From the IMG/VR virus record IMGVR_UViG_3300012953_000037, positions 1 to 57,774 of that record: 57,774 nucleotides of DNA; one strand, given 5' to 3'. Position numbers and translations under genes: made by a program. The notes beneath the pieces are model-generated. The model did no database searches. It saw only the letters and a list, made by a program, of their open reading frames with translations, and was not told the DNA's origin. Numbering within the stretch: the first letter of the stretch is position 1; each line of letters begins with the position of its first letter. Shown here piece after piece: positions 18,548 to 52,198 of the stretch. The DNA comes from a virus (Duplodnaviria > Caudoviricetes).

Positions 18548-19543
18548 ATGGCAGGGTTTTTAGATCCAAAGCAACGAGTGATGGATGTCATATTAACAGA
18601 GATCGGTCGTGCACAAATGACAAAAGGCGATTTTGACGTAAAATTTGTCTCTTTTAGTGATGACGGTGTAGAATACGTAGATGGCGGTGGTGGCGTACTT
18701 GAACCAATAACAGAGCGCCTCTTTTTCGAAGCTTTTAGCAAGCCATCGGATGAAATCATTCCGGAAGTAGATTCTCTTGGAAAATTTATCATAGATCAAT
18801 CAATGCCCGGGAATCTCGAAGTCAAGAATGGCGTTCTCTTCGAAACATCCAATCCGAATGGGTATAAAGAAGTAGATGGCTATAGTCGTATATCTAGCTT
18901 CTGTGAGAATACTACTAGCCGCTTCAATGCATTGGGCATTCTCAATACAATCACAGGTACAGAAGATTTTTCATTAGACAAATATAGTTTTGATACTTTG
19001 GGCGTTCCAGACGGAGTTGTTTCTGAGGACATTCCCCCTCTAGATAGTGTCTTACCTCTTTCGATCGACCCTAGATTCGAAAACCAATTGAACATGAGGT
19101 ATCTTCCTCCTGTGGTATCAACTGCGGCAGGTGACGTAAATCTTCGAAGTTTCAACAAGTGGACAGATTCAGAAGGTACTTCTGAGTTCTACCCAACTTT
19201 GACAAACTTGCAAGTGAAATTGGAAGAAATAAAAAATTCTGCTGTTGGTGAAGCTACGATAGATGATGAATTACCTCTACCAACAAGAATAACAATCGGG
19301 TCATTAGATTCTAAAGACTTCGAGAGATACGACATACTAGGCCAAGTATTTGTAAAAAAGAAACAAACATTGAAAAAATACGTGATAATCGATGCTGGTG
19401 AGTTTTTCAATGTAGAAAACGAGCCTGTATGTCGTATATATTTTCTAGGTTTCGTATATAAGGATCAGTTTGGTACAACAAAATTTGCAAGAGAGTTTTC
19501 AATGATATTTCATAACGGAGAAATCGATGAGGTCGGAACATGA
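18548..19543 (+). CDS. Putative baseplate/collar structural protein; N-terminus paralogous to 29012-29623
   Basis: GGGAG RBS supports ATG 18548. MAGFLD...DVILTEIGRAQM...FSDDGVEY resembles MGFLD...DAVLTDKGRKKLA...FADPEVDY. Confidence 0.55.
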   Translation: MAGFLDPKQRVMDVILTEIGRAQMTKGDFDVKFVSFSDDGVEYVDGGGGVLEPITERLFFEAFSKPSDEIIPEVDSLGKFIIDQSMPGNLEVKNGVLFETSNPNGYKEVDGYSRISSFCENTTSRFNALGILNTITGTEDFSLDKYSFDTLGVPDGVVSEDIPPLDSVLPLSIDPRFENQLNMRYLPPVVSTAAGDVNLRSFNKWTDSEGTSEFYPTLTNLQVKLEEIKNSAVGEATIDDELPLPTRITIGSLDSKDFERYDILGQVFVKKKQTLKKYVIIDAGEFFNVENEPVCRIYFLGFVYKDQFGTTKFAREFSMIFHNGEIDEVGT

Positions 19544-34300: not shown

Positions 34301-34507
34301 GGTTTTGCTAATGAATCTAAGAACAACAATTATCAATCTTTACGTGCTACTGCTAACTCTAACGAATCTGAATCTCTAACTACTTACATTTCTACAGTTT
34401 ACTTACATGATGAGAACCTTAATATTATTGGGAAGGTCAAATTGGCTCAACCTATACAGAAACGAGAAGAAGACTCTTTCTTGTTCAGAATTAAAATGGA
34501 TTTTTGA
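31322..34507 (+). CDS. LamG/ConA-like domain baseplate protein (1061 aa)
   Basis: AGGAGG RBS. LamG pattern FNIEFWIKP...NEWHHVSLRW...MYLNN...LFVGG...ELRCWDYPRT. C-terminal YISTVYLHDENLNIIGKVKLAQPIQK...FRIKMDF. Confidence 0.65.
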   Translation: MAIQKVNDSNKLLSRVELRPKRLYTSGSWGVSGSIYVFPNRSETQKDNIDERLNLFPLEDGTDPNWDGSNPPESAIIRPFSGNSLEARRIDIYGGDFNLFDQTLTDALAWEYTFEDNTGTVPAWALANPNEVVPFDETGTDVFLGDDLNDWLEEDYSRIGVGDKAIQSLGDPSVTTTFVWTSNNNWVIEDNNNDNSIYNKLPETDRDKNALNYEVPLSLLLDGADPETQDHAWRKSAVYQVEQNNPLYSLGNSSLTAGNPELFQFTGWNYQMENGFPIETTTITSKDEVNAWPPEIEKWGSNIITNFTVQGYSDLSMHPRNKTQKFIEFDRADYDYFSQSSSKQRMLFRKYKNKGLLEEGWWVKNSQSLSLQSYLDFQSVERVPALAYPDENAQYVIDFSSSEISFNIEFWIKPAEEQTEIGTVVQLDENYAIVIIPDPDYIVNSIPQRFRVSMRVGSAAADGEAILGDLDHRENGGTAGVFISRPLLTVNEWHHVSLRWGRNFNNGLFTMYLNNVPVEEFDGINDGARTGLIQTNVAITTTNKALFVGGYPSDTNSYQNEIWDEYSLNQRGLGWANAESQSGGTITGGGYLTNFSCRFQLKSELTELRCWDYPRTEEIIDREWTSRANTAGSLLYYIPFWFDANHEFFERKPELIPGVATENQSYDPGVDLEEIFYDHAADISNTMEYYHQKTPFCENWGHIAGVPFVNVGSHLKEYIGSSIPVVVGMPDISDKDIRVYPNFDGSSNTVNNQFQKEKISYLQRNWSRINWLRCWNSIMVPCTIQLDTHITKFIDADSATSSVYENGTPIKISYHKPENLSFYESNAVGNTLSGKMFEDEQWRQGTRTEVKDQNTEELLSWSQEPKLTVDGMTNDIDNLAEVIVEEDILPPYSLVISIPVIYYGNRIEPESFCLSTKTESGKDIKIVDRNGVLYVADYLQRPTCAKVGHIDYEFGYLCIFSHLLCNVSLNETSLEFRGSKNLHVLQFDVRCPVGFANESKNNNYQSLRATANSNESESLTTYISTVYLHDENLNIIGKVKLAQPIQKREEDSFLFRIKMDF

Positions 34508-35052
34508 TGATTGTTGGATTAGATGCAAGTACAAGTACAGTGGGTATTTGTATATTAGATAAAAAAGGGGAGATTGTACAAAATTATTTTCTGAAATTAA
34601 AGAAACAGAAGGAATTATGTACGAAAGGAGACGTGCTTAAAGACGAATTAGAAAAGATTCAGTCTAAGTACGATATAACACAGGTATTTATAGAGGACTA
34701 TGCTCAGAGGATGGCTAGAGGAACTTCTAGTGCACAGACTATTACGAGACTAGCGGCTTGGAATGGCATCTGTCAGTACTTGTCCTATCAAATCTTTCAC
34801 GTTCAGCCCGAAGTTTTGAATGTTGCAAGAGCTAGAAAGCTACTACAGATCAAGACACAGTCCAAGAAGAAAACAGGTATACCCGTCAAGGACCAAGTCT
34901 TTGCATGGGTCACAAGACACCTCAATGCTGAATGGCCTACAAAAGTCCTACAGTCTGGCCCCCGTAAAGGTCAAGAAGTTGTCCTAGACGAAGCAAAGGA
35001 TATGGCGGATGCTTGGGTTGTTGCCAAAGCAGGGTACGTTTCTAATTTGTAA
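34507..35052 (+). CDS. RuvC-like Holliday junction resolvase
   Basis: RNase H-fold acidic motifs IVGLDAST, VFIED and DMADAW. TGATG overlap with the upstream gene. Confidence 0.8.
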   Translation: MIVGLDASTSTVGICILDKKGEIVQNYFLKLKKQKELCTKGDVLKDELEKIQSKYDITQVFIEDYAQRMARGTSSAQTITRLAAWNGICQYLSYQIFHVQPEVLNVARARKLLQIKTQSKKKTGIPVKDQVFAWVTRHLNAEWPTKVLQSGPRKGQEVVLDEAKDMADAWVVAKAGYVSNL

Positions 35053-35075
35053 AATAGAAAATAGTATATTACTAT
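35047..35075 (+). promoter_or_regulatory. Sigma70-like promoter TTGTAA-N17-TACTAT (primase)
   Basis: -35 at 35047-35052 and -10 at 35070-35075 with a 17-nt spacer. Same -35 hexamer and spacing as the promoter at 36899. Confidence 0.55.
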
Positions 35076-35081
35076 TACTTT

Positions 35082-36011
35082 ATGTACGAATCTAAAATCA
35101 AATTTTTAAGTCGGGTCTGGCCCAATCACCGTATCACTTCTGGTGGACGAGAGTTCAAAGTTGTGTGTCCAAAATGCGGAGATAAGTCCAGACCCGACAA
35201 GCGTAAACTGTGTATACGTCTAGATAACGATTTGTACCACTGTTGGGTGTGTGATCTCAAAGGCCGATCTGTCTCACGTCTTATTCGTAAAGTGAAACCA
35301 ACACTTGCGGCTTCGTACCAATCACAATTTGGTCAAGTCAAGTTTCAGGAACACCAAGAGGATTTTGTCAAGTGTGAACTTCCGGATGGTTTTCGTTTGG
35401 TTATGAATAATCTTTACGATCCTGATGCGAAAAGAGTGCGACGATACGCACACACCCGTGGTATCACCGATAGTGAACTGTGGCGGTTCCGTGTGGGTTA
35501 TTCTCCCCAAATGAGAAGGCGTATGATACTACCTTCTTTCGATGAGAATGGCACACTAAACTATTGGACAGCGAGAAGATGCGATTCAAATCCTGACTGG
35601 CGATACCTCAACGCAAAAGTACCGAAGACACAATTCGTAGTGGGTGAATTGGATCTAGACTGGAGTGCTGAGGAAATCGTCCTTGTAGAAGGGCCAACAG
35701 ATCTTATCAAGTGTTCGTTGCTCAACGCCACATGTTTACTTGGTAGTACACTTTCAGAAAATAGTGAGTTATTTAGAAAATTAATCACATACCCTGAAAG
35801 GATCGTTTTAGCAATGGATGCAGATGCTAGAAAGAAACAAGATAAAATCGCATCACTTCTAATGTCTTACGATAAAGACGTCTATTGGGTCACTGCACCC
35901 AAAGATTCAGATTGGGGTGACTTAGATCCACGGGATGTGTACAATAAGATGCAAATACAGTATCAATATACCCCTGATACGAAATTAATGAATATGATTC
36001 AAGATCTTTAG
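35082..36011 (+). CDS. DNA primase (Zn-binding + TOPRIM; DnaG/T4 gp61-like)
   Basis: CPKC...YHCWVC zinc-binding domain, RGI and R.ILPSFD..G.LNYW.AR motifs, and TOPRIM motifs LVEGPTD and MDADA. Confidence 0.85.
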   Translation: MYESKIKFLSRVWPNHRITSGGREFKVVCPKCGDKSRPDKRKLCIRLDNDLYHCWVCDLKGRSVSRLIRKVKPTLAASYQSQFGQVKFQEHQEDFVKCELPDGFRLVMNNLYDPDAKRVRRYAHTRGITDSELWRFRVGYSPQMRRRMILPSFDENGTLNYWTARRCDSNPDWRYLNAKVPKTQFVVGELDLDWSAEEIVLVEGPTDLIKCSLLNATCLLGSTLSENSELFRKLITYPERIVLAMDADARKKQDKIASLLMSYDKDVYWVTAPKDSDWGDLDPRDVYNKMQIQYQYTPDTKLMNMIQDL

Positions 36012-36019
36012 TATAATTA
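36012..36019 (+). promoter_or_regulatory. Putative late promoter TATAATTA
   Basis: Exact octamer, 31 nt before the ATG at 36043. Confidence 0.65.
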
Positions 36020-36042
36020 GCTCTTGTTAGCAGAGGTAAGAT

Positions 36043-36891
36043 ATGAAGACAATTGAACAAGCTATTTTAGATGAATTTCATCTAGGGCAAGGAACAGTCC
36101 ACATCGATGATCTTTTAGACATGTTTCGAGAAGAATTCCCGGGAGAACCTTTTGAGAATTTGCATGCTGCGATGGAAATACTAGAAGCTGAAGGAGTGAT
36201 CAAACTCGAAGGCTCTTCTGGTTATTACCATCATCTCGCAGAAGTACGATATACAATACGAAACATTCTTAGTGAAGCTAGATACAAAAAGAATAGAAAA
36301 CAACGAAGATATGTAGCAAACACAATTCAGACGAATCAAGGAAAGTATGATCCCCGAAATGACCGACATCGTCAGATGCTAGCTCAAGATCTCTATAAGA
36401 ACATGACTAAAGCCCAACAAGGTTTCTCGACAAAAGGGATTAGGTATCTTAAAGAAGGCGAAGAAATTGTCTGGAAAAAAACATTCCCGAATGGAATGAA
36501 ACTGAACGTGTATACTTCCGTGAAAACAGAAGTAGATCCCACACAGAAATCTGGCAAAACGTTTAGATTTGCACCTAGAGCAAAAGGAAGAGTATATTTC
36601 CAGATCGAATATACTATTCCAGCTGCATACGCTAGAGTTGCAGGAGTACCTCAAGGTTCACAGATGTATTATTCTTTTTCATCAACACCTGTCAATCGTG
36701 TAGGAACATTCGCACAGATCATTGCAAGAATTAATGCAGGCATTGAAGGCCTCGAGGATTTCGGAGATAGAATCAAAAAAGCTGCAGCTTACTTTTCAAA
36801 GGTTGCTAAAGGTGACGAATCCATCGAAGATGTAGAAGCAGCATTGACAGATGCACTCCCAGGCCGTCAAACTATGACACAGGATATATAA
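36043..36891 (+). CDS. Hypothetical protein (282 aa), candidate internal head protein
   Basis: GAGGT RBS and late motif. N-terminus MKTIEQAILDE and internal LAEVRYTIRNILSE, followed by a basic region. Confidence 0.55.
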   Translation: MKTIEQAILDEFHLGQGTVHIDDLLDMFREEFPGEPFENLHAAMEILEAEGVIKLEGSSGYYHHLAEVRYTIRNILSEARYKKNRKQRRYVANTIQTNQGKYDPRNDRHRQMLAQDLYKNMTKAQQGFSTKGIRYLKEGEEIVWKKTFPNGMKLNVYTSVKTEVDPTQKSGKTFRFAPRAKGRVYFQIEYTIPAAYARVAGVPQGSQMYYSFSSTPVNRVGTFAQIIARINAGIEGLEDFGDRIKKAAAYFSKVAKGDESIEDVEAALTDALPGRQTMTQDI

Positions 36892-36898
36892 ATCGATT

Positions 36899-36927
36899 TT
36901 GTAAAGTACGACAGAGGTGAGTATAAT
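36899..36927 (+). promoter_or_regulatory. Sigma70-like promoter TTGTAA-N17-TATAAT (SbcCD fusion)
   Basis: -35 at 36899-36904, consensus -10 at 36922-36927, 17-nt spacer. Confidence 0.65.
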
Positions 36928-36949
36928 GTATCTATCTAGGAGAGGATCT

Positions 36950-39900
36950 ATGAAGATAGTACATATTGCTGACGTTCATTGGCGTGGTTTACAACGCCAT
37001 GAGGAATACCGACGCTCATTCGAAGACATGTTCACACAGTGCAGGGAAATTAATCCTGATGCAATCGTTATTGCAGGTGACATTGTTCATTCGAAAACCC
37101 AAGGCATCTCACCCGAGTTAATCGACTCACTTGCGTGGTGGTTTACGGAGATGCATAAGATTTGTCCTGTGCACTTGATGTTAGGAAACCACGATGGTCT
37201 CGTACTCAATGCCGACAGGCAAGATGCAATTTCACCCATTGTGAACATGCTTAATCTACCACGTTTGTACCTATACAAAGGTACTGGTGTTTATCCCGAT
37301 CCTCATCTTGATGATGTCGAATGGTGTGTCTACTGTCCTTTCGATACGAAAGGATACGACTCTCTAAGGCCTTCAGGTAAGAGACCTATCTCCATCGCAC
37401 TATATCATGGATCAGTTTGGGGTTCTCATACTGATGGTGACTTTATGCTCGAAGGAGAGACGAAGATGTCGAGGTTTCGTGAGTTTACATTTACGATGTT
37501 AGGTGACATTCACAAAAGGCAACAGATGGATGCAGAAGGTCGTATACATTATCCGGGATCGACGATACAGCAGAACTACGGTGAAACACCCGGTAAAGGT
37601 TTTCTATGTTGGCACATCAACGGCCCTGACGACTGGAAAGTCGAGTTCCATCCAGTTGCGCATGCAAACCCATTCGTGACAGCCGATTGGAAAGGAAACA
37701 TCGTAGCCACAATCAATGAATGTGTAAAAACTTGGCCTCGTGGTGCTCGCTATAGAATCCGAGCAAATGAACAACTCGATCCAAAAACACAAAGAAAAGT
37801 ATCTACTGTTCTTCGTAGAGAATACGACGCACACGAAGTAGTATTCAAGTTAGTTCCAAAATATCAAGATCAATCACAAGAAGAGATTATCGAGAAACTC
37901 GAGGTACTGGATCTTAGTGATCTTCAAACCCACAAGGACCTCCTTGCAGAATATGGTTCTGACGAAGGTTTCACCGACGAGTTTTGGGATGAATGTTTCG
38001 AAATTATGGAAAAGACCATCACAAACCTCGATTATTCGATACCTCTTGGCAAGAAATGGTCGCTTAAGAAGATGAACTTCGACAATACGTTTGGGTATGG
38101 ATCACATAACACGATTGATTTCGGTAAACTCTCAGGTGTCGTAGGTCTATTCGGACAAAATCGATGTGGTAAGTCGTCTATCCCGGGCACAATCATGTAC
38201 TCGCTGTATAATTCGAATGACCGCGGCCTTACATCCAACGCACATGTCGTCAATTATCGCAAGAAAGAGGCAAATTCAGATCTTACATTCTCTGTAAACT
38301 CAAAGCTTTATCGTATTGAACGACAATCTGTGCGGTATACATCTAGAAGAAAAGGAACTGATGGTGCGCAGACTTATCTAAACTTGTTTGAAGTAGACGA
38401 AGAAGGATGCATCCTACGGGATCTCAGTGGAGAACAACGGAGAGATACGGAAAAAGAGTTGCGAGATCTTATCGGGTCACCCGACGAGTTTATGATGACA
38501 TCGTTTGCCGCACAAGGAAACATGAATGCATTCATTAACAAAGGAAGCACTGACAGGAAAAAGCTCTTGTCGACATTTATGGGCTTGGACGTATTTGACG
38601 AGATCCACAAGAAAATCAAATCAGAAAGCGAAGGCATTAAGGGTATGCTTAAGCGTATGGATGAAAAAGATTGGGTGGCTGAAATACGCAAGAAACGACA
38701 CCGCATTGGTCAGCTAACTGAGGAAAATGTTGATCTCAAGATGGAGATAGATGATTTATCTGAAAGACTATCAGGTTTGCGAAACAAAGCCAACGAAGAT
38801 CACGATGACTTCGTAGATCCATCCGTCTTACAGCGTGCAGAATCGAATCTTGAGACAAAGAAGAATCAATTGCGTAAGTTATCACGTACCATCGAAACAA
38901 CACAAGAGGAAATCGAATCTCTTCGCATCAAGTTCGGTAAGTACGATAACATCAAGGCAACATTTCCTATCGAAGGCTTTCGCAGAAGACTCGAGAACCT
39001 CGAGGATTTGAATAGATCATTAATGAAACAGAAAAACTTGCTCGATAAAGAAAATCGTATCTTGAAAGGACAAAAACACTCTGTGTCACTTCTAAAAGAA
39101 GTGCCTTGTGGTGATTCGTTTCCAACGTGTAAGTTTATTGCTGAATCGCACAGAAACAAAACTCTAATGAAAGAACAAAAAGAACTAGTTTCAGAATTAC
39201 GTACAGAAGTCGCTAAGATGAAAGAATCAATCGATGACCTACAAGGTGAAGGCCTTCGCAATCGTATCGCCAAGTACGAAGGTATGCTAAGGCAAGAAGC
39301 TGAAGATAAGATTTCTCATACTCGTTTGGAATCATCGATAGAAACGAGTCAAATGAAGATCTCTAGACTAGAGAGAGAAATCGACCAATTAAATGAACAA
39401 ATCGTAGGTTTGAAACTCAAGCTGAATGCTGATAAATCAGACGAATTAAAACGTCTTCAACGAATGATTCAGGATGTTGCAAGCCAAGTTTCTACGAAAG
39501 AGTCGACATATATAGGAAACGTTGGAAAGATTGGTAAGTTTACGAGTGATATAGAACAACTGAAAAAAGACCAAATCGAATATGATCGCCTGCAAATGGA
39601 ATACAAAGCTTATGATTTTCTTCTAAAAGCTACGTCTTGGCGTGGTATCCCAACACATGTTATGTCAAAACAGCTACCAGCTATTAACGCAGAGCTCGCA
39701 AAGATTTTATCGGATGTGACCGGTTTCACGATAGAGCTAGAAGTAGACGAAAGAAATACGAACATTTTCATCAATTACGGTGATACACGACGCCCTGTTG
39801 AGTGTGCCTCGGGTATGGAAAAGATGGTATCGTCTATGGCGTTAAGAGTAGCAATGTCGAATGTATCGTCTTTATCTAAATCTGATATGTTTATCGTGGA

Positions 39901-40081
39901 TGAAGGTTTCGGTGCACTGGATCCTCACAACATCGAATCTGTCGTAGGATTACTTCATCGTCTAAAACGGTACTATAGACTTATTCTAGTCATCTCCCAT
40001 GTAGAATTTATCAAAGATTCTGTAGACGAAGTGATTGAAATTACAAGGAATGGCGTAGACTCAAAGGTGGTATATGAATAA
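36950..40081 (+). CDS. Fused SbcD-SbcC (Mre11-Rad50; T4 gp47-gp46-like) recombination nuclease/ATPase
   Basis: Phosphoesterase motifs HIADVH, GDIVH, GNHD and GDIH. Walker A GQNRCGKSS, Q-loop AAQG, long coiled coil, signature-like ASGMEK, Walker B/D-loop FIVDEGFGALD, H-loop ISH. AGGAGAGGA RBS supports ATG 36950. Confidence 0.9.
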   Translation: MKIVHIADVHWRGLQRHEEYRRSFEDMFTQCREINPDAIVIAGDIVHSKTQGISPELIDSLAWWFTEMHKICPVHLMLGNHDGLVLNADRQDAISPIVNMLNLPRLYLYKGTGVYPDPHLDDVEWCVYCPFDTKGYDSLRPSGKRPISIALYHGSVWGSHTDGDFMLEGETKMSRFREFTFTMLGDIHKRQQMDAEGRIHYPGSTIQQNYGETPGKGFLCWHINGPDDWKVEFHPVAHANPFVTADWKGNIVATINECVKTWPRGARYRIRANEQLDPKTQRKVSTVLRREYDAHEVVFKLVPKYQDQSQEEIIEKLEVLDLSDLQTHKDLLAEYGSDEGFTDEFWDECFEIMEKTITNLDYSIPLGKKWSLKKMNFDNTFGYGSHNTIDFGKLSGVVGLFGQNRCGKSSIPGTIMYSLYNSNDRGLTSNAHVVNYRKKEANSDLTFSVNSKLYRIERQSVRYTSRRKGTDGAQTYLNLFEVDEEGCILRDLSGEQRRDTEKELRDLIGSPDEFMMTSFAAQGNMNAFINKGSTDRKKLLSTFMGLDVFDEIHKKIKSESEGIKGMLKRMDEKDWVAEIRKKRHRIGQLTEENVDLKMEIDDLSERLSGLRNKANEDHDDFVDPSVLQRAESNLETKKNQLRKLSRTIETTQEEIESLRIKFGKYDNIKATFPIEGFRRRLENLEDLNRSLMKQKNLLDKENRILKGQKHSVSLLKEVPCGDSFPTCKFIAESHRNKTLMKEQKELVSELRTEVAKMKESIDDLQGEGLRNRIAKYEGMLRQEAEDKISHTRLESSIETSQMKISRLEREIDQLNEQIVGLKLKLNADKSDELKRLQRMIQDVASQVSTKESTYIGNVGKIGKFTSDIEQLKKDQIEYDRLQMEYKAYDFLLKATSWRGIPTHVMSKQLPAINAELAKILSDVTGFTIELEVDERNTNIFINYGDTRRPVECASGMEKMVSSMALRVAMSNVSSLSKSDMFIVDEGFGALDPHNIESVVGLLHRLKRYYRLILVISHVEFIKDSVDEVIEITRNGVDSKVVYE

Positions 40082-40287: not shown

Positions 40288-40701
40288 ATGTTAGATTTAC
40301 AAGAACTAAGAATTTTAGAAAGCTTGGTCAATACGACCTTTGGCAGGACTTCAATGCGAGAAGCAGGCCATGCGATCGCACACAAAGTCATGAACCATTG
40401 TGACGATGGTTGTACATTAGAGATCAGGTTTGAAACAATTGTCAATGTCAATTCACGTGATGGGATTATGACAGCACAAAAAGAATTTGATGATATATCT
40501 AGAAAAGCGATAGATGAACAAATCAAACAGATTAAACAAGACTTCAAAGTCGAATCTGGCAGAGCTCTGAAAGTAAAAGAATTCAAATCAGACAGAAAAG
40601 GCCAACAACCTTTGAGAGAATCGTTTCTCGAGATTATTTCTTTCAATCCATCACTCCTTCGTGGAAAATATTATAGAACTTTGCAATACCACATCGCATA
40701 A
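40288..40701 (+). CDS. Hypothetical protein (137 aa) translationally coupled to TerL
   Basis: AGGAG RBS. TAATG overlap with terL. Confidence 0.65.
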   Translation: MLDLQELRILESLVNTTFGRTSMREAGHAIAHKVMNHCDDGCTLEIRFETIVNVNSRDGIMTAQKEFDDISRKAIDEQIKQIKQDFKVESGRALKVKEFKSDRKGQQPLRESFLEIISFNPSLLRGKYYRTLQYHIA

Positions 40702-42281
40702 TGGCTTCAATACGAAACAATAAACAGGCGCAGATCAAAGAGATCATCAAGTGTGGAAAGAACCCTACGTATTTCTTTAATAAGTACGTAAAGATTCAAC
40801 ATCCACAGAAAGGTACTATTCCTTTCAAAACTTACCCATTTCAAGATACATGCGTACAAGATTTCAGAGATCATCGATTTAATATAGTGCTCAAATCACG
40901 CCAGTTAGGTCTGTCAACGATTACTGCAGCTTATGCTATGTGGATGGTATTGTTTCATAAAGATAAAAATGTTCTGATTATCGCTACGAAATTAGCAGTG
41001 GCACAAAACTTTATCAAAAAGTGCAAGTTTCTTCTAGCGTCATGTCCGAAGTGGTTGATACTTCCTCAAATTATAAAGAATAATTCACAAGCAATCGAGT
41101 TCAACAACGGTTCACAAATCAAAGCTATCCCTACGTCAGAGGATGCAGGTCGTTCAGAAGCATTGTCTCTCCTAATCGTGGATGAGGCTGCCTTCGTGAG
41201 AAATTTTGATACTCTATGGACCGGTCTGTACCCAACGTTGTCAACGGGGGGTGAGGCAATTGTTTTGTCAACTCCAAATGGTGTCGGAGGACAGTATTAT
41301 GATTTGTGGGTATATGCTGAAAAAGGAGAAAATGTTTTCAATCCGATTAAGCTTCCTTGGGATGTCCACCCTGATAGAGATGATACGTGGTTCGAAGAAG
41401 AAACCAAGAACATGTCTCAAAAACAAATCGCACAAGAATTGTTATGTGACTTTGCAGCTTCCGGAGAAACATTTTTAAGAGTCGAAGATATAGAGTACAT
41501 TCGAGAATGGATCCGAACACCTATCGACCGTTGGGGACCCGATATGGGAGTTTGGGTTTGGGATTATCCTTTAAGTGAAAAGAAATATGTGATCTCTGCA
41601 GATGTTTCCAGAGGGGATGCGAACGATTATTCGACTTTCCACGTAATAGATACCGAAGCTTCTCATATCGTTGCAGAATACCAAGGCAAATTACCGCCAG
41701 ATAGATTTGCGCAATTATTAGCAGAAGCCGGAAAAAGATATAACGATGCATTGTTGTGTCCTGAGAATAATTCGTATGGATACGCAGTCATCATGAAATT
41801 AAACGAGTTAGATTATCGAAACTTGTATTTCCAAAATGATAAAGATCGATATAATTATATGTACGGCAACAAAGACATTGCCAAAATTGGGTTTCAGACT
41901 AATTCTAAAACCCGAGCACAAATACTGACGAAATTGGAAGAAGTGTTGAGAACTAAACAAGTGAAAATTCGTTCCAGTCGGTTATATGAAGAACTAAAAA
42001 CCTTCGTATGGAAGAATGGAAAAGCACAGGCTATGCGTGGTCAAAACGATGATTTGATCATAGCATTAGCTATTGGCGTTTGGCTTTATGATACCTCTCC
42101 ACAATTGTCAAAACACGGAACAGATATAAACAAAGCAATGTTGGCAGCTTTTGCAGTAAATTCAACGCAAGTTGAAGATACAGTTTTAGATCAGGACAGT
42201 GCAAAAATACAACACAGACGAAAGAGCGTCACATTTCCCGGGTCAAAACACCCTTATGGTAATTATGATTGGCTAAAATAG
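40701..42281 (+). CDS. terL: Terminase large subunit (T4 gp17-like)
   Basis: YPFQ adenine-binding motif, Walker A KSRQLGLST, Walker B LLIVDEAAF, coupling motif STPNG, nuclease motifs ISADVSRG..DYS and NDDLIIA. Confidence 0.95.
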   Translation: MASIRNNKQAQIKEIIKCGKNPTYFFNKYVKIQHPQKGTIPFKTYPFQDTCVQDFRDHRFNIVLKSRQLGLSTITAAYAMWMVLFHKDKNVLIIATKLAVAQNFIKKCKFLLASCPKWLILPQIIKNNSQAIEFNNGSQIKAIPTSEDAGRSEALSLLIVDEAAFVRNFDTLWTGLYPTLSTGGEAIVLSTPNGVGGQYYDLWVYAEKGENVFNPIKLPWDVHPDRDDTWFEEETKNMSQKQIAQELLCDFAASGETFLRVEDIEYIREWIRTPIDRWGPDMGVWVWDYPLSEKKYVISADVSRGDANDYSTFHVIDTEASHIVAEYQGKLPPDRFAQLLAEAGKRYNDALLCPENNSYGYAVIMKLNELDYRNLYFQNDKDRYNYMYGNKDIAKIGFQTNSKTRAQILTKLEEVLRTKQVKIRSSRLYEELKTFVWKNGKAQAMRGQNDDLIIALAIGVWLYDTSPQLSKHGTDINKAMLAAFAVNSTQVEDTVLDQDSAKIQHRRKSVTFPGSKHPYGNYDWLK

Positions 42282-42325: not shown

Positions 42326-44377
42326 ATGGCAGACAGAAAAACCCCAGACAACTTGTTTCAGCGACTTACGAAGCTGTTTCGATCCGGACCAAGCGTCAAA
42401 CGCAAGGTCAAGAATTACACAAAGGCTGATAAAAATGCTTCTAGTGCCGTGGAGCTTTTCAAAAAAGCTCATTCAGACGTGTACAATAGCACTCTTTCTG
42501 CTTATGGGACTTTTGACCGCATGGCTCGCTATAGTGATTTTTCTGAGATGGAATCTACCCCCGAAATTGCTAGCGCCTTGGACATCTACGCAGAAGAAAG
42601 TTGTTCCCAAGACTCCGAAGGGCGAGTCCTCCACATTCACTCCGACAATCGAAAAGTAAAAGAGCTTCTAGAAACATTGTTTTACGATACCCTTAATATT
42701 AATTTTAATATGGTGATGTGGACTCGAAATCTTTGTAAATACGGAGATTTTTTCTTGTTCAACGATGTATCTCCTGAATATGGTGTTATCAATGCCTATC
42801 CCATCCCAATTACGGAAATAGAAAGAGAAGAAGGGTATGATGCGAATGATCCTTCGGCCGTAAGATTTCGTTGGATTGCCCAAGGAAACGCAATTCTAGA
42901 AAATTGGCAAATAAGTCATTTTAGATTGCTCGGCAATGATGCGTTCCTCCCGTATGGATCCTCGGTTCTCGAGGCCGCACGTAGGATATGGCGTCAGCTT
43001 ATTCTTATCGAAGATGCAATGATGGTTTATCGTGTCATTCGATCTCCGGAAAGGAGGGTATTCTATATCGATGTTGGTAATGTGCCTCCAGAAGATGTTG
43101 CAAACTATGTCGAACAAGCAAAGAACTCTTTGAAAGTAAATAAGGTTGTAGGGGGATCCCAAGGCAACGTAGATTTACGATACAACCCAATGGCTGTTGA
43201 TGAAGATTACTTCATTCCTGTAAGAGGTGGAGATACCGGTACTAGAATTGATTCACTTTCAGGTGGCCAAAATACGTCTGCAATCGAGGATGTTGAATAC
43301 ATACAAAAGAAACTCTTTGCAGCTTTGAAGATCCCTAAGGCTTATCTAGGATACGACGAAGAAGTAGGTTCGAAAGCAACACTAGCTCAAGAGGATATAC
43401 GATTCAGTCGATCAATTGCGAGGATCCAGAAAACAATCATAGCTGAGTTGAATAAGCTGGCCATGATCCATCTTTATGCACACGGTTTCGAAGGAGAGGA
43501 TTTACTTGATTTTTCCCTATCCTTATCGAATCCATCGTCTTTAGCACAGCAACAGAAACTTTCATTGATTGAACAAAAGTTTAGCATAGCAGGATCTGCT
43601 CCCGAGGGAATGGTATCTAAAACGTGGATATATCAAAATATATTTGGCTTCAACAAAGACACGATAGAGCAAATCCATCGAGATCTCATCAGAGAAAAAT
43701 TGGAAGGAATGGAAGTTGAAAATGCAGGCTCAGATGAAGAGGGCGGTGATGACGGAGGTGGCGACGATGGAGGTGGCCTGTTTGCAGGAGATGCAATTCA
43801 AGGGCAAATTCTAGACGGTGACACAGATACTAAAATCATTCCTCAGCTTGGAGAAACAGATGAATTTTCAGAGGATGAAAACGAGGATGACGAATATATA
43901 GATCTCGAAAGAATTTCACAGCATATAGGAGATGGCGAAATAAAGCCTAGCTCCACGTCTAAGGGTGCATTCGGAAATGAAATAACCAATCCTCGAGATC
44001 GATCTGTCAAATTTGGTGCTGCAGACCTTCACATGCCAGATTTTAAGAAAATGGTTGCTGGCTCAAGACCTCAGGATACAATGAATGATCCTTACGACAG
44101 CTCTTGGATCAGGAACTGGGGAAGAAGAGATCAGATGGAATCAAAAAGTCAACGTTTGGCAGACATAATTGCAGGAATGGATTCTCCTATTAAAGATCTA
44201 GTCCCTGAAACAATCAAACCATCGATGTCTTTTGACACCCAAAGAATGTTAGAGAAAATGAACTCAAAGTTAGGCATACGCAAGTTGATGACAGAATCAA
44301 AAAATTATGAAACACTTGTCGAAGGTTCTTTCGACGAAGAATTCGAAATAGATATGGAGAATACAGATGACAATTAA
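42326..44377 (+). CDS. Portal protein (T4 gp20-like) with long acidic C-terminal extension
   Basis: gp20 signatures QLILIEDAMMVYRVIRSPERRVFYIDVGNVP, EDYFIPVRGG...IDSLSGG and IEDVEYIQKKLFAALKIP. Confidence 0.95.
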   Translation: MADRKTPDNLFQRLTKLFRSGPSVKRKVKNYTKADKNASSAVELFKKAHSDVYNSTLSAYGTFDRMARYSDFSEMESTPEIASALDIYAEESCSQDSEGRVLHIHSDNRKVKELLETLFYDTLNINFNMVMWTRNLCKYGDFFLFNDVSPEYGVINAYPIPITEIEREEGYDANDPSAVRFRWIAQGNAILENWQISHFRLLGNDAFLPYGSSVLEAARRIWRQLILIEDAMMVYRVIRSPERRVFYIDVGNVPPEDVANYVEQAKNSLKVNKVVGGSQGNVDLRYNPMAVDEDYFIPVRGGDTGTRIDSLSGGQNTSAIEDVEYIQKKLFAALKIPKAYLGYDEEVGSKATLAQEDIRFSRSIARIQKTIIAELNKLAMIHLYAHGFEGEDLLDFSLSLSNPSSLAQQQKLSLIEQKFSIAGSAPEGMVSKTWIYQNIFGFNKDTIEQIHRDLIREKLEGMEVENAGSDEEGGDDGGGDDGGGLFAGDAIQGQILDGDTDTKIIPQLGETDEFSEDENEDDEYIDLERISQHIGDGEIKPSSTSKGAFGNEITNPRDRSVKFGAADLHMPDFKKMVAGSRPQDTMNDPYDSSWIRNWGRRDQMESKSQRLADIIAGMDSPIKDLVPETIKPSMSFDTQRMLEKMNSKLGIRKLMTESKNYETLVEGSFDEEFEIDMENTDDN

Positions 44378-45209: not shown

Positions 45210-45821
45210 ATGAGCGCACTTAAATTAATTACCGAATGGTCCGCGTGGGAATACGACAAAGAGAAGACTCTTAATGAAGCTGCTTCGAATGGTGGTCGAT
45301 ATATCATGCGAGGGATTTTGCAAAAAGCGAATACCTTGAATCAAAACGGCAGGGTTTATCCTTTAGATATACTCGAACGAGAAGTACGAAACTATCAGAA
45401 GTTTATTGCAGAAAATAGAGCTCTTGGTGAGCTCGATCATCCCGACTCTTCAGTTGTGGAATTAAAGAATGCTTCGCACATTGTAAGAGAAGCATACATG
45501 CAAGGCGATATCTGCTACGGGTCAGTCGAAATTCTAGATACTCCATCAGGTAAGATCCTAAAATCCCTCGTAGATTCTGGTGTCACGCTAGGTATTTCGT
45601 CTAGAGGCGTAGGAAGTACCCGAAAAGAAAGTGATTATCAAGTCGTACAAGACGATTTTCAACTCATCTGTTGGGATTTTGTGACAGAACCCAGTACGCC
45701 GGGAGCCTTTATGATGAAAGAGGGCAAAGAGATAAATGAATCTGATCTCAAACGACACTTTACTAAGAGCGACAGGATCGATAGAATATTTAATGACGTT
45801 ATGTCATGGAGGAAAGAATAA
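45210..45821 (+). CDS. Prohead core protease (T4 gp21-like)
   Basis: Motifs NQNGRVYP, ALGELDHP, ILDTPSGKIL, LGISSRGVGS and WDFVTEPSTPGA. Confidence 0.95.
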   Translation: MSALKLITEWSAWEYDKEKTLNEAASNGGRYIMRGILQKANTLNQNGRVYPLDILEREVRNYQKFIAENRALGELDHPDSSVVELKNASHIVREAYMQGDICYGSVEILDTPSGKILKSLVDSGVTLGISSRGVGSTRKESDYQVVQDDFQLICWDFVTEPSTPGAFMMKEGKEINESDLKRHFTKSDRIDRIFNDVMSWRKE

Positions 45822-46771: not shown

Positions 46772-46801
46772 GAATTGTTCAATTATTTAGAGGAGATTTC
46801 C

Positions 46802-47604: not shown

Positions 47605-48207
47605 ATGACGCCATCAAAGGTTTCGATAGGTGGTGCTAATTTACCTGCATCGCACGGAGACGGTAGGGACGACCTGGGATATGGTCGTCTCAATCCGAAG
47701 TACCACGTACAAAAGATGCTTGGGAACGATTCATACCCTTATCGAGACCAAGATGAAGATCTGGATGATGTCGAAACATTTGTTGACGAAGAAGAAGAGG
47801 AAGAAATATGGGATCGAATGTCAGCCCCTCAGGACTATGACCCGGGTGGCGGACATTACGATCCATTTTCTTTTACGGGATCTAATACAACTTTAAGTGG
47901 GCCATCACATATCGGTGAGACTTTTGCAAATGCGTCAAGAGGCATGACACCAATCAGTAGAAAAGAATTATATCCACGTTTGAATGTGACACCTGTTGGT
48001 GGTACTGGGCAAGGTGTCGATGCGACTGGTGGGCTCGGTATTTCAACTAATGATACTGGTGATCGATGGGGATGGAGTAATCCTCTCTATAAAGAAATAG
48101 ATACAGATTCTGAAAACGAGTATAATTACACACTAGAAGACATTGCATCAGAAGATGAAGAAGATCTTCGAGAATGCATACGATTAATATTATTGAGGAA
48201 ACTATGA
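47605..48207 (+). CDS. Hypothetical acidic, likely disordered head protein (200 aa)
   Basis: ORF tightly packed in the head operon, ending in the helix EDLRECIRLILLRKL. Confidence 0.6.
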   Translation: MTPSKVSIGGANLPASHGDGRDDLGYGRLNPKYHVQKMLGNDSYPYRDQDEDLDDVETFVDEEEEEEIWDRMSAPQDYDPGGGHYDPFSFTGSNTTLSGPSHIGETFANASRGMTPISRKELYPRLNVTPVGGTGQGVDATGGLGISTNDTGDRWGWSNPLYKEIDTDSENEYNYTLEDIASEDEEDLRECIRLILLRKL

Positions 48208-48431
48208 GCAAAGCTTGCAATTTTTCTGTTAAGAGGAACCCTCGCCTAGCAGGCAAGAAATCTGAAGAAGAACAGAACATGATTTTGATAAAAAAATTCA
48301 TGAAGAAATGGAAACTTTCTGGAATTTTGAGAGAAATCAAAGAAAAATCTTACCCACAAACAAGGGGTATGAAAGCACGAAAAAAGCGATACCTCGGAAA
48401 AAGAAGGAATAATCGTAAGCCAAACCGATAA
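48204..48431 (+). CDS. rpsU: Phage-encoded ribosomal protein bS21 homolog (divergent, 75 aa)
   Basis: LIKKFMKKWKLSGILREIKEKSY...KARKKR aligns by eye with the bS21 core [23 protein letters not shown]...RKRAK. Size and basicity fit. GAGGA RBS and ATGA overlap. Position among head genes matches described bS21 phages. Confidence 0.7.
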   Translation: MSKACNFSVKRNPRLAGKKSEEEQNMILIKKFMKKWKLSGILREIKEKSYPQTRGMKARKKRYLGKRRNNRKPNR

Positions 48432-48483: not shown

Positions 48484-50211
48484 ATGAGTAATTTGTACAA
48501 AGACGCCATTGCCGATGCCCGAAAATTGAGAGAGACTGCGGAACAGAACGCCAAAAATCGAATTATCGAGGCGGTGACTCCAAAGCTCAGAAGATTAATC
48601 GAGCGACAAATAGCAGAAGGCGATGATGAAATTATCACTGACGATGAACTAGAAACTGGCCTTTTAGACGGCCCGGACGCTATGGACATGTTAGATGATA
48701 CAGATTCAGAAGAAGAATGGGAAGTGCCAGAAGCAGAACCAATGGATCTGGGACCGGATCCTGTCGACATTGAGTCTGATGGATTAGCTTCTTTGGAAGT
48801 CATTCCAGATGAAGAAGAAGAGGATGAAGAACCACAAGAGTTCGAAGATGAGTCACAGAACAAATCTGTTCACGTGAACATCACGGTGGAAGGGAAGAGA
48901 AATTATCTTCTCAGACATCGGGCCATTCGTTTGGTTAAAGCTTTGAGTGAAGCAAAAACACGAGCTCAGCGAAATAAAATTCGCAAAGAGTTGAAAGTTT
49001 TACGCTCTGCTCTTATAATTACAGAAAACAGCCAGAACAAACGACTGGCAAACAACTTATCAGTTATCTTAAAGGAGAGTAATACTATGAGACGACGTAA
49101 AAACAGCTGGTTGTTCGAAGGAAAGGACGGAGAAGCTGGCGAAGAGATGGAATTCGATGACATGGATTTCGAAGACGAAGAAGGCGAAGAAATCGAAGAA
49201 GAAGAAGGAAGCGACACCATCGAAGTAGATGCTGCTGCTCTTGAAGATGCTCTCGGTTTGGACCCTGGTACATTATCTGATGCTGGATCGGAAGATTTGG
49301 ATATGGAAGATGATGAAGACGAAGACATTGACTTTGAAGAAGAAGATGAAGAAGGCGAAGATGAAGATCTTGACCTTGAAGAATCTTACTCATCAATGAA
49401 AGAGTCTGATGACAAAGCTGCAGACGAAGACGAATGTTCTGAAGATGAAGTAGTTGAAGTGAACGAGGCTATGTTGCGTCGTGCTCTTGGTGCTTCTCGA
49501 AGACGTAGAACTCCAAGTCGTAGATCTTCACGATTATCTGAAACAAGACGAAGAAGAGTCGCTAGAGCACGACGTCGTAGACGATTGGCTGAAGGCGAAG
49601 CTAAAGCAATGGCATCATCTTTTGGTGGTGGAAAAGCTGGTAAGGACATGTTCGTTGAAGTCGACGAAAACACTCTTCTCAATGCTCTTGCTGAAGAATT
49701 AGGATCATACGGAAATTCAACCGCTAATCAAGGACAAGCTTCCAAGATGGCTGGTCACTTCGGTGGTGGTTCAATCAAAAAAGGCGCTGTTATGGAGTCA
49801 CGTCGTGCACGTAGAGCTCAAAGACAATTAGCCGAAACAAAGAAAATTGCAAGAAAGAATGCTCGAGTAGCTAAAGCTGCAAAAGCAGAACTTAAAGAAT
49901 CAAATTTATTCAATGCGAAATTACTGTTTGTCACTAAATTACTACAGTCGCATTCCCTAAACAACAAGCAACAGCGTGCTATTATCGAGGCGATGGACAA
50001 TGCCAAGACTCAACGCGAAGCCAAGTTGCTTTTCACCTCATTGAACGAATCTTTGAACAAAAAGAGTCTTAACGAATCTAAAAAGTCAAAGAAAACCCTC
50101 AATGAATCAAGAACTTCTTATTCTAACAGATCATTGCAGTCGGGACAGGCTCCTCGCAATAATGCAGTTGAGTTGGATCGTTGGGCTGTTCTTGCTGGTC
50201 TTAAAAAATAA
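48484..50211 (+). CDS. Prohead scaffolding/core protein (T4 gp22-like position, 575 aa)
   Basis: Immediately upstream of the MCP. Helical termini, long acidic and Arg-rich blocks, many LxE sites, C-terminal RWAVLAGL. Confidence 0.75.
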   Translation: MSNLYKDAIADARKLRETAEQNAKNRIIEAVTPKLRRLIERQIAEGDDEIITDDELETGLLDGPDAMDMLDDTDSEEEWEVPEAEPMDLGPDPVDIESDGLASLEVIPDEEEEDEEPQEFEDESQNKSVHVNITVEGKRNYLLRHRAIRLVKALSEAKTRAQRNKIRKELKVLRSALIITENSQNKRLANNLSVILKESNTMRRRKNSWLFEGKDGEAGEEMEFDDMDFEDEEGEEIEEEEGSDTIEVDAAALEDALGLDPGTLSDAGSEDLDMEDDEDEDIDFEEEDEEGEDEDLDLEESYSSMKESDDKAADEDECSEDEVVEVNEAMLRRALGASRRRRTPSRRSSRLSETRRRRVARARRRRRLAEGEAKAMASSFGGGKAGKDMFVEVDENTLLNALAEELGSYGNSTANQGQASKMAGHFGGGSIKKGAVMESRRARRAQRQLAETKKIARKNARVAKAAKAELKESNLFNAKLLFVTKLLQSHSLNNKQQRAIIEAMDNAKTQREAKLLFTSLNESLNKKSLNESKKSKKTLNESRTSYSNRSLQSGQAPRNNAVELDRWAVLAGLKK

Positions 50212-50242: not shown

Positions 50243-52198
50243 ATGTCGTTTACAATGAAAACTTTGACCGAAGGTATCCGCCAGCGTCACATGGGTGCAC
50301 AACACCAACGATTGACTGAAAAGTGGAACCGAACTGGTCTACTTCGTGGCCTTAATGGTTATAGCCGCGAAAACATGGCAGTTATGCTTGAAAACCAAGC
50401 TGCTCAACTGCTTCGTGAAACAAATACTCTTGGAACTCCAAGCTCATCTGGTGACATTCGTGGTTTCCAAAACGTTGCATTCCCAATCGTACGTCGTGTA
50501 TTCGGTGGATTGGTTGCTAACGAATTGGTTTCTATTCAACCAATGTCTCTACCATCTGGTCTTTTGTTCTACTTAGATTACACCTACGGTACTGACCAAG
50601 GTGGCGCTGACAACGGTACTAACGGTACTACTGCTGCTACTTACGATGCAGGTACTTCTATCTATAACAACCCAACAGGTAAGGGAATTCAATCTGGTTC
50701 TTTGGCAACTGGTGGACAGTATGACCTTCTTGGTTCTGGTTATTCTCGTCGTCATGACGAAATGGCTCATGCTTTCATCGCTACTATGCCAGATGATGAA
50801 ACTGCTGACGGTGACATTGCGATCGCTGCTGTGAACGCATCTACTGCAGCACTTAATCTTGTTGGTCTAGACGGTCTAACTGCTCTTGGTGGTGCTACTT
50901 CTTTGACTGGCGCTGTTGGTCGATTGGTTGACTTTGACTCTGCGATTGCTCAGTATCTTGCTGACAACTCAGGTTCTAGTTTGCTTTTCTGTATTGTTGC
51001 TGTAGCTAACCTTGATGGTGATAATTACACTGCTAAGTTTGACTTGACAATGTTGCAAGACTTTGCTCTTTACGAAGTCAACTCAACTGTTGACATTGGC
51101 TGTGTTGATGCATCAGCTGCTGGTTTCCAAGGTGGAGACGCTATCCAAGGCCTTAGACGTCATGTGAAAAGAGTTGACGTTGCTGGTGATGCAGACGGTG
51201 GTAAGATCACTGTTAATCCTCTCGGTGGAAAATACATCTTGATCCCTGTACTTGTCGATGACTCTACAGCAACTCCTGCTGTTGGTGGTGTGTGTAATAT
51301 CAGTGCTCCTGTATCTTCTACTTTGGACATCGACGACAATGACGGTTCAGCTTTGACTATTCCTTCATTCGAATCTACTTTGACAGATAGTTCATCTCCA
51401 ACTCAAACACCTGTTATTCCTGAAATCGACATCAAAATCGAATCTCTTGCTGTGACAGCTGTTTCTCGTAAGTTGAAAGCTAAGTGGTCTCCAGAGCTTG
51501 CTCAAGATCTTAACGCTTACCACTCACTTGATGCGGAAGTTGAATTGACTCAAATCCTTTCTGAGCAAATTGCGCTTGAATTGGATCGTGAAGTACTCAA
51601 CGACCTTCTTACACAAGCTAACGGTGCTAACCTTTTCTGGTCACGTGCTCCTGGTAAGTTTGTTAATAAGTTGACTGGTGTTGAAGTTCCACGTAATACT
51701 TCTCTTCGCCCTGGACCTCAGTTCACTGGTACTGTAAGAGATTGGTACGAGACTCTTTGTGAGACTATCATCGACGCTGCTAACATTATTCACAGAAAAA
51801 CCCTTCGTGGTTCTGCGAACTTCATCGTTATCGGTCCTGATGTTGCTACAATCTTCGAATCAAGTGTTATGTACAAGCCTTCTTACTCTATCGACGGACA
51901 AGGTCAAGCTGGTGCATTGAGCATCGGTGCTGAGAAGATCGGTAATCTTTCTAACAGATTCACTGTTTACAAAGATCCTTACTTCCCACGCAACAAGGTT
52001 CTAATCGGATACAAAGGTGGCTCATACCTCGAAACAGGTTATGTGTATGCTCCATACGTACCTCTTATTGTCACTCCTACAATCTTCGCTCCTGAGGACT
52101 TCACCCCAAGAAAAGGTGTTATGACTCGCTACGGTAAGAAGATGGTTCGATCTGACTTCTACGGTACTGTCACTTGTTTGGATATGAACATCATCTAA
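50243..52198 (+). CDS. Major capsid protein (T4 gp23-like, 651 aa)
   Basis: gp23 motifs MAVMLENQ, FPIVRRVFGGLVANELVSIQPMSLPSGLLFYL, RKLKAKWSPELAQDLNAYHSLDAEVEL and GYVYAPYVPL...FTPRKGVMTRYG. AAGGAG RBS and strong codon bias. Confidence 0.97.
   Translation: MSFTMKTLTEGIRQRHMGAQHQRLTEKWNRTGLLRGLNGYSRENMAVMLENQAAQLLRETNTLGTPSSSGDIRGFQNVAFPIVRRVFGGLVANELVSIQPMSLPSGLLFYLDYTYGTDQGGADNGTNGTTAATYDAGTSIYNNPTGKGIQSGSLATGGQYDLLGSGYSRRHDEMAHAFIATMPDDETADGDIAIAAVNASTAALNLVGLDGLTALGGATSLTGAVGRLVDFDSAIAQYLADNSGSSLLFCIVAVANLDGDNYTAKFDLTMLQDFALYEVNSTVDIGCVDASAAGFQGGDAIQGLRRHVKRVDVAGDADGGKITVNPLGGKYILIPVLVDDSTATPAVGGVCNISAPVSSTLDIDDNDGSALTIPSFESTLTDSSSPTQTPVIPEIDIKIESLAVTAVSRKLKAKWSPELAQDLNAYHSLDAEVELTQILSEQIALELDREVLNDLLTQANGANLFWSRAPGKFVNKLTGVEVPRNTSLRPGPQFTGTVRDWYETLCETIIDAANIIHRKTLRGSANFIVIGPDVATIFESSVMYKPSYSIDGQGQAGALSIGAEKIGNLSNRFTVYKDPYFPRNKVLIGYKGGSYLETGYVYAPYVPLIVTPTIFAPEDFTPRKGVMTRYGKKMVRSDFYGTVTCLDMNII

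Follow-up and report, generated by a model that had tools for sequence, protein, structure and literature searches.

Among the ribosomal proteins found in viral metagenomes, bS21 encoded by phages is the commonest, and its role is still unproven. We analysed a bS21-like gene in the IMG/VR virus record IMGVR_UViG_3300012953_000037, a sequence of 57,774 bases with an estimated completeness of approximately 24%, which is referred to here, at its full length, as the window and which is a fragment of an uncultured T4-like myovirus (aquatic / ocean). The gene lies among the head genes of this phage, and its product is very probably a homologue of bS21 that has diverged beyond the reach of the curated family models. 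Phage bS21 is already known as a gene type; a remodelled sub-family that falls below the thresholds of these models and has a candidate late-promoter site of its own is new.

Mizuno et al. (2019) reported bS21 in 1310 viral genomes or contigs, which are for the most part aquatic and lytic, and showed that E. coli ribosomes take up the bS21 of pelagiphage HTVC008M (PMC6375957). According to Chen et al. (2022), prohead protease and capsid genes generally lie 2-4 genes from phage bS21, a core structural gene is found within ten genes in 388 of 900 published bS21 phages, and the hosts of these phages are diverse; the five freshwater clades of that study carry bS21 on the reverse strand and have Bacteroidetes as their predicted hosts (PMC9723584). 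A first-pass annotation of the window, made by a model from the sequence alone, had taken the predicted hosts of the described bS21 phages to be mostly Bacteroidota, which does not agree with the host diversity given by Chen et al. For the cellular protein, bS21 of Bacteroidota is described as having a weakly basic C-terminus and a signature residue, Tyr54, that stacks on A1534, with the anti-Shine-Dalgarno sequence (ASD) turned into a pocket (PMC7797042), and in Flavobacterium johnsoniae bS21 is reported to adjoin the 3' tail of the 16S rRNA and to control the availability of the ASD (PMC7797042; PMC9976891).

Like the phage bS21 of these studies (PMC6375957, PMC9723584), the window gene encodes a small basic protein in a large, lytic-type T4-like phage and lies near protease and capsid genes; like the phage bS21 of head regions, it is presumably expressed late. 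Unlike published phage bS21, its product scores under the cut-offs of Pfam and TIGR and has the motif SYPQTRG, an insertion and a new invariant tail. The gene is on the strand of the head genes, whereas the five freshwater clades carry theirs on the reverse strand; the window has Shine-Dalgarno (SD)-led genes and no equivalent of Tyr54, unlike the Bacteroidetes-type phage bS21 that Chen et al. describe (PMC9723584). With cellular bS21 (rpsU; PF01165, TIGR00030) the protein shares its length, its charge, a predicted extended N-terminal segment followed by helices, and the sequence pattern of helix 1, but its loop motif and C-terminal half cannot be aligned with cellular bS21 by hhalign.

The bS21-like gene and its conservation

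The gene and the two signals before it are as follows.

48204-48431, + strand: bS21-like gene, 75 amino acids plus stop codon (identified from its open reading frame (ORF), homologues, dN/dS, hhalign and synteny)
48195-48199, + strand: Shine-Dalgarno sequence GAGGA, 5 nucleotides (nt) before the ATG at 48204
48121-48128, + strand: TATAATTA, a candidate late promoter of the T4 type, inside the gene at 47605-48207 and 75 nt ahead of the bS21-like start

The reading frame is open from 48174 (48174-48431, + strand), which would give a form of 85 amino acids; the conserved start is the ATG at 48204, and the extension of the longer form is missing in L008, the most distant of the close relatives. 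The first-pass annotation had placed the feature at 48121..48431. The gene is real, but the first of these coordinates is the position of the upstream motif and the gene itself starts at 48204. An SD-type core (GAGG, GGGG or GGAG) was present at the same place in all 8 aligned sequences, and the ATG overlaps the stop codon of the upstream gene, which encodes an acidic protein of 200 amino acids, in the sequence ATGA (48204-48207). The 75-amino-acid product is very basic, with 16 lysines and 10 arginines against 5 glutamates and a net charge of approximately +21.

A word-indexed search revealed 93 homologues at E≤0.01, all of them metagenomic, whose identities in the best local alignments were 69-100%; the JGI name was ribosomal protein S21 for 3 of the 93. 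In all 7 close IMG/VR loci, the order of genes from portal to capsid was intact on one strand. The median pairwise ratio of nonsynonymous to synonymous substitution rates (dN/dS) was 0.067, as estimated from the 15 of 21 pairs with a finite dS below 3, the other six being saturated. The 75-amino-acid ORF is a real gene under strong purifying selection.

Homology to bS21

The first-pass annotation had called the ORF bS21-like and had proposed a search with PF01165 as a check. For the single sequence this search was negative, as hmmscan gave no match to PF01165 at E≤1 with either the 75- or the 85-amino-acid form, and TIGR00030 gave 12 bits (E 0.14), below its cut-off of 28.95 bits; at the level of family profiles, the comparison was positive. 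When a profile was searched exhaustively against 1.84 billion cluster representatives, only 18 clusters were found at E≤1e-3, and two of them, P0108 and P0109, exceeded the PF01165 cut-off of 27 bits (44.2 and 37.4 bits). The intermediates P0097, P0099, P0102 and P0107 matched PF01165 at 2.7e-5 to 2.5e-6, and P0109 is a mix in which the N-terminal NF-V and LIKKF pattern of the window family stands together with the canonical YYEKPS. By hhalign, the window family matched 13 PF01165-annotated viral bS21 proteins, which were reached through P0109, at 97.8% (E 7e-13, columns 1-67) and, in an independent alignment, 6 cellular bS21 proteins from metagenome-assembled genomes at 93.4% (E 2.5e-7, columns 20-52).

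Further comparisons pointed in the same direction. A profile of the family plus the sub-threshold intermediates gave 15 matches at E≤1 among the PDB sequences, 14 of which were bS21 chains; the best was chloroplast S21 (E 0.0041), and the phycobilisome protein ApcE was no longer present. The TIGR00030 scores were graded, from 41.3 and 39 bits in canonical relatives through 26.7 and 23.3 bits in intermediates to 12 and 10.9 bits in the window clade, the last being that of L008. An N-terminal CNF-V motif is common to the window protein and the canonical phage bS21 of L019 and L020. In a language-model atlas, the nearest named neighbours were viral PF01165 clusters (0.88 and 0.87), a result that we take as a lead only. 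The profile-profile comparisons, the transitive chain of intermediates and the synteny described below make it very probable that the 75-amino-acid protein is a homologue of bS21, so that the earlier assignment is upheld at this level, while the family models do not reach the single sequence.

In addition to the negative model searches, several observations weigh against this assignment. YYEKPS, the most conserved motif of bS21, is gone from the window protein, and against cellular bS21 only 33 columns, those of the first helix, could be aligned by hhalign. When the 32 aligned family members were scanned singly, 21 matched PF01165 (rows counted at E≤10) and equally 21 matched PBS_linker_poly, the best E-value of any member being 6.4e-4 for PBS_linker_poly vs. 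1.5e-3 for PF01165. The only hmmscan match of the window protein at E≤1 was PBS_linker_poly (E 0.11), and a profile of the family alone ranked ApcE (E 0.016) over bS21 (E 0.55) among the PDB sequences. A phycobilisome linker (PF00427) was considered as a candidate; it scored 12.9 bits against a cut-off of 28.7 and covered 60 of 126 profile positions, and this reading was dropped in view of the hhalign matches to bS21 and of the disappearance of ApcE once the intermediates join the profile.

A search of the whole 57.8-kb record with PF01165 found nothing at E≤10, which fits the divergence of the gene and indicates that there is no second, canonical bS21 within the 57.8 kb. The tblastn search of the window protein against 50,697 phage records gave one row at chance level (an Enterococcus phage, E 0.6), and that of the canonical protein P0110 against the collection of cultured phages gave no match at E≤1e-3, so no cultured phage is tied to the lineage by these searches. 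Flavobacterium phage immuto has an ORF of 75 amino acids right after its protease gene, followed by one of 30 amino acids, before its scaffold and capsid genes; these were rejected as counterparts, their translations being unlike the window protein as judged by eye.

An AlphaFold2 model of the protein (predicted local distance difference test score 75.7) has an extended N-terminus and helices at residues 21-39, 41-49, 56-63 and 66-70, and it is compatible with bS21. Foldseek found nothing at E≤0.001 for the isolated model in the PDB, and VIA-align against 48,161 chains gave a best Z of 3.6, with generic long helices and coiled coils and no bS21 among the 50 best rows. These fold searches are uninformative, because the isolated model of a small, extended, rRNA-bound protein is a poor probe.

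Two of the related clusters, P0096 (123 amino acids) and P0106 (137 amino acids), have a bS21-like N-terminus fused to an unrelated C-terminal sequence, and they are probably frameshifted or chimeric gene calls.

The slot shared with canonical phage bS21

The genes that define the position of the bS21-like gene are listed here.

45210-45821, + strand: prohead core serine protease, T4 gp21 type (PF03420 E 1.6e-27; phrog_207 E 1.5e-50)
47605-48207, + strand: gene of an acidic 200-amino-acid protein of no known family, adjoining the bS21-like gene on its 5' side
48484-50211, + strand: putative scaffold of 575 amino acids, a charged low-complexity (acidic/basic) protein, named from position and composition only
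50243-52198, + strand: major capsid protein, T4 Gp23 type (PF07068 E 1e-73; phrog_138 E 2.1e-71)

The interval from protease to capsid holds six small genes and the putative scaffold. The bS21-like ORF is the last of the small genes, with the protease six genes upstream and the capsid two genes downstream, and thus stands directly before scaffold and capsid, as had been noted in the first-pass annotation. The 575-amino-acid protein had no Pfam or PHROG match; from its position before the capsid gene, its composition and its presence in relatives, we infer a scaffold role. The 200-amino-acid acidic protein had no Pfam match at E≤1 and a single weak PHROG row (phrog_33433, E 0.023). Its gene lies directly upstream in all 7 close and all 3 intermediate loci, that is, it is paired with the bS21-like gene in 10 of 10, so that a very acidic protein is always accompanied by a very basic one across an ATGA overlap.

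To place this arrangement among the relatives, 74 viral loci were obtained by a scan with the canonical protein P0110. A homologue of the window protease was found upstream and on the same strand in 39 of these canonical loci, and in 35 of the 49 that have more than 3.5 kb of upstream DNA. Homologues of the scaffold or capsid protein were found downstream in 21 of the 74 loci, 18 of which had matches on both sides, and no head-gene match on the opposite strand was found in any of the 74. In the more distant T4-like relatives, canonical bS21 fills the same slot between protease and scaffold.

Remodelling of the protein and phylogeny

Compared with canonical phage bS21 and cellular bS21, the window clade carries an insertion of 7-8 residues between the N-terminal strand and helix 1. 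After the first helix, it has SYPQTRG in the columns where canonical sequences have (R)[YF]YEKPS, and the intermediates have YPITKG or YPITRG there. Both changes, the insertion after the first strand and the replacement of YEKP, had been pointed out in the first-pass annotation, and the alignment bears them out. Across the 32 aligned members, the C-terminal tail MKARKKRYLGKRRNN varies little or not at all, and the tail MKARKKRYLGKRRNNRK is strongly basic. Within this region, Arg67 is aligned with Tyr54 of a Flavobacteriaceae bS21 (L015), and an invariant Tyr63 lies four residues before it.

The divergence of the protein is graded along with that of the protease. The close loci L002-L007 share 94-97% identity with the window in the protease and 80-88% in bS21 (85-amino-acid ORF form), L008 shares 85% and 65%, the intermediates L016-L018 share 77-78% and 53-57%, and the canonical loci share 44-59% and 25-34%. 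We built a maximum likelihood tree from 55 distinct rows, comprising the window, 10 close or intermediate, 38 canonical viral and 6 cellular sequences, with rows shorter than 64 amino acids and identical duplicates left out. In this tree, the window clade and the intermediates formed one group with full support (100/100), and the stem leading to it measures 1.42 changes per column, against a median end branch of 0.13. The group nearest to them, weakly supported (76/84), was a canonical viral one whose proteins start with CNF-V (L019, L020, L022, L032, L069, L077 and L092).

The upstream motif as a candidate late promoter

The late promoter of T4 is described as TATAAATA at -13 to -6, recognised by gp55 (PMC1524935). 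The first-pass annotation had suggested a dedicated promoter at 48121, inside the upstream gene, and had described the promoters of the window as sigma-70-like. The first part of this proposal fits the data: the exact TATAATTA is there, and it is non-random, strand-specific and conserved. The sigma-70 type was rejected, since a consensus scan of 44-53 kb gave 23 sites, no significant excess over the 16.0 +/- 3.8 of the shuffles.

In the window, TATAATTA occurs in 15 copies against an expectation of 2.94 +/- 1.91, a number reached in 0 of 100 shuffles, and 14 of the 15 copies are on the + (coding) strand. Six of these 14 lie in non-coding DNA, which makes up 2.6% of the window. Five of the intergenic copies stand 23-34 nt before the called starts 15724, 29012, 36043, 42326 and 54062; the sixth precedes the TTG that was called as a start at 46775 by 3 nt, and the following ATG in that frame, at 46802, by 30 nt. 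The T4 element TATAAATA was not enriched in the window (3 copies vs. 2.74 expected). Like the T4 late promoter, which is served by gp55, gp33 and gp45 (as described in PMC1524935), the window element is a single A/T-rich element of 8 bp without a -35 box, is strand-specific and lies a short distance before late genes; unlike it, the element reads TATAATTA and not TATAAATA. In the literature searched, no paper paired TATAATTA with the term 'late promoter'.

Conservation was also considered for the site at 48121. It lies at exactly -83 in 6 of the 7 close loci, and L008 has GATAATTA; the site is missing in the three intermediates L016-L018. Among the 77 invariant columns of degenerate amino acids in the upstream gene, the codon is kept in all 8 sequences at only 10, and both adjacent codons in TATAATTA (AAT and TAC) are invariant across the 8. 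The motif is common in the close relatives, with 26 copies on the + and 4 on the - strand in 66 kb, and shows no coding-strand enrichment in the relatives with canonical bS21 (3 on the + and 34 on the - strand in 378 kb). We conclude from the sequence comparison that TATAATTA at 48121 is probably an extra T4-type late promoter of the sub-clade, and that the copies before gene starts form a candidate late-promoter set of this uncultured T4-like lineage.

The motif is also found on the + strand at 9006, 15686, 18517, 28978, 36012, 42291, 46764 and 54020, shortly before gene starts. Another copy, at 49014-49021, lies inside the putative scaffold gene and is kept in all 7 close loci, L017 and L018, at +772 to +826 from the bS21-like start across loci. 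This copy may be an internal late promoter that gives either a truncated scaffold product made up of the C-terminal part or one more transcript towards the capsid gene.

Shine-Dalgarno use and the host

An SD core, defined as GGAG, GAGG or AGGA at -17..-4, was found at 26 of 39 hand-listed or 25 of 38 (66%) automatically called starts of the window, and before only 8.9% of all its ATGs, in agreement with the SD richness stated in the first-pass annotation. By the same automatic method, 43 of 75 starts in the close loci, 21 of 35 in the intermediates and 209 of 335 (62%) in 39 canonical-bS21 loci with a T4-like head context had an SD core, compared with 0 of 17 starts in Flavobacterium phage immuto, for which the head region was used. 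Because the canonical-bS21 relatives are equally SD-rich, SD use does not track the altered bS21. The Bacteroidota promoter motif TAnnTTTG was neither enriched in the window (57 vs. 47.5 +/- 7.8) nor biased to one strand, and the earlier statement that the promoters are not of this type is borne out.

The protein belongs to a family homologous to the Bacteroidota bS21 of Jha et al. (2021; PMC7797042), and its C-terminal region, like the one described there, is expected near the 3' tail of the 16S rRNA; it differs in its very basic tail and in having Arg67 in place of Tyr54. Because Arg67 aligns with Tyr54 and the tail is strongly basic, the window protein is not of the ASD-sequestering type. 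The SD cores at 25 of 38 starts, the basic tail and Arg67 together suggest that the host is an ordinary SD-using bacterium and not a member of the Bacteroidia, and the different, SD-using host put forward in the first-pass annotation fits these features. The nearest cultured relatives of the capsid and portal proteins, at 35-47% identity, include Flavobacterium phage immuto, a Microcystis phage and Rhodothermus phage RM378. The presence of immuto (37-47%) and RM378 (35-38%) among them speaks against this view of the host, and the phylogeny of the nearest phages leaves room for a Bacteroidota-related host lineage.

Role of the protein and alternative explanations

As a whole, we consider it rather likely that the gene encodes a diverged phage bS21 that is expressed late and acts in the ribosome; the ribosomal role, taken by itself and argued by analogy, is likely on balance. 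Under this explanation, a bS21 gene would have occupied the slot between protease and scaffold/capsid since before the diversification of an aquatic T4-like myovirus clade. On the branch leading to the window, a burst of change would have been followed by strong purifying selection, the burst comprising the insertion after the first strand, the change from YYEKPS to SYPQTRG and the new invariant basic tail RKKRYLGKRRNN. The gene would be expressed with the late head genes by read-through and translational coupling, by means of the ATGA overlap and its own SD sequence, and, in the sub-clade only, probably by a second route as well, from TATAATTA, an additional late promoter of the T4 type that lies 75 nt before the start. 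The protein may enter the host 30S subunit late in infection, at the bS21 site beside the 16S rRNA 3' end, and there it would replace or supplement the host bS21 and keep or bias initiation on the late mRNAs of the phage.

It is unlikely, in our judgement, that the protein is a neofunctionalised ex-ribosomal protein, descended from phage bS21 and now in another nucleic-acid-binding role in head assembly, be it an internal or core protein that is packaged and neutralises DNA or, to give another example, a partner of the upstream acidic protein. The position of the gene among prohead-core-type genes, between protease and scaffold, would suit such a role, and so would the net charge of the product and the ATGA coupling to a very acidic neighbour that is kept in all ten loci. 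The loss of YYEKPS and the gain of the insertion, the long stem with strong constraint thereafter on a new set of motifs, and the gain by the sub-clade of its own late-promoter site, missing in L016-L018, can likewise be read in its favour. However, the first helix, the recognisable core of bS21, is still conserved, and canonical bS21 occupies the same head slot, a location that Chen et al. (2022) describe as typical (PMC9723584); because the canonical bS21 of the relatives is in the same slot, the location in the head module is uninformative on a change of role. We can propose only tentatively that the remodelling and the own late promoter mark a change of job, whether a new docking on the 30S subunit that would re-specialise ribosomes for late messages or a recruitment to head assembly, such as that of a core protein that is packaged, neutralises DNA and has the upstream acidic protein as its partner.

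The first-pass annotation had proposed that the altered bS21 retunes initiation, that is, that it changes the presentation of the ASD so that ribosomes favour SD-led late phage mRNAs. The late genes are indeed rich in SD sequences, bS21 adjoins the 16S rRNA 3' tail and controls the ASD in F. johnsoniae in the studies cited above (PMC7797042; PMC9976891), and the tail that is expected near the ASD is where the protein has been remodelled most and where it is also least variable. Nevertheless, the frequency of SD cores is alike in canonical relatives, intermediates, close loci and the window, with no co-variation between SD use and the altered bS21, and the window holds almost only late-type genes. 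We therefore regard such retuning as improbable.

Finally, it is highly improbable that the protein has no kinship with bS21 and is some small, basic and helical protein of a generic kind that resembles bS21 and phycobilisome linker repeats through chance of composition: the curated models do not reach it and its PBS_linker_poly and ApcE matches are similarly weak, but intermediates chain it to proteins above the PF01165 cut-off, both hhalign comparisons recover bS21, ApcE drops out and 14 of 15 PDB matches are bS21 once the intermediates are included, CNF-V is shared with the canonical proteins of L019 and L020, and the syntenic slot is identical.

Other features of the window

The window has a GC content of 41%, its + strand carries nearly all of the genes, and no tRNA genes were found in it. 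Apart from three DNA-metabolism genes, its content is almost only of late type. Two further head genes were identified.

40701-42281, + strand: terminase large subunit (phrog_2 E 2.5e-49)
42326-44377, + strand: portal protein (phrog_213 E 4.8e-72)

The major capsid protein has 651 amino acids, and the Gp23 profile matched it in two stretches, the best of which covered residues 387-641; tblastn against cultured phages covered only 53-59% of its length, split into two segments. These results point to a large insertion within the protein's first half. Six giant ORFs of 943-1837 amino acids (544-6057, 6061-9099, 9083-14230, 19540-22371, 22384-26988 and 31322-34507) had no PHROG match at E≤1e-5; they presumably encode an unstudied type of protein of the tail, the baseplate or the fibres. 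Between these giant structural ORFs and the terminase, at 34504-40081, lie genes of a RuvC-like resolvase, a primase, whose start at 35082 has no SD core, and an SbcC/gp46-like nuclease.

Significance

None of these findings overturns current views. The clade shows that screens with the Pfam and TIGR family models miss strongly diverged descendants of bS21, and therefore counts of bS21-carrying phages are underestimates. In addition, TATAATTA gives convenient access to the late transcription of a T4-like lineage that is uncultured. The series from canonical through intermediate to remodelled bS21, in one slot of SD-using phages, bears on which parts of bS21 matter for entry into the ribosome and for the selection of mRNAs.

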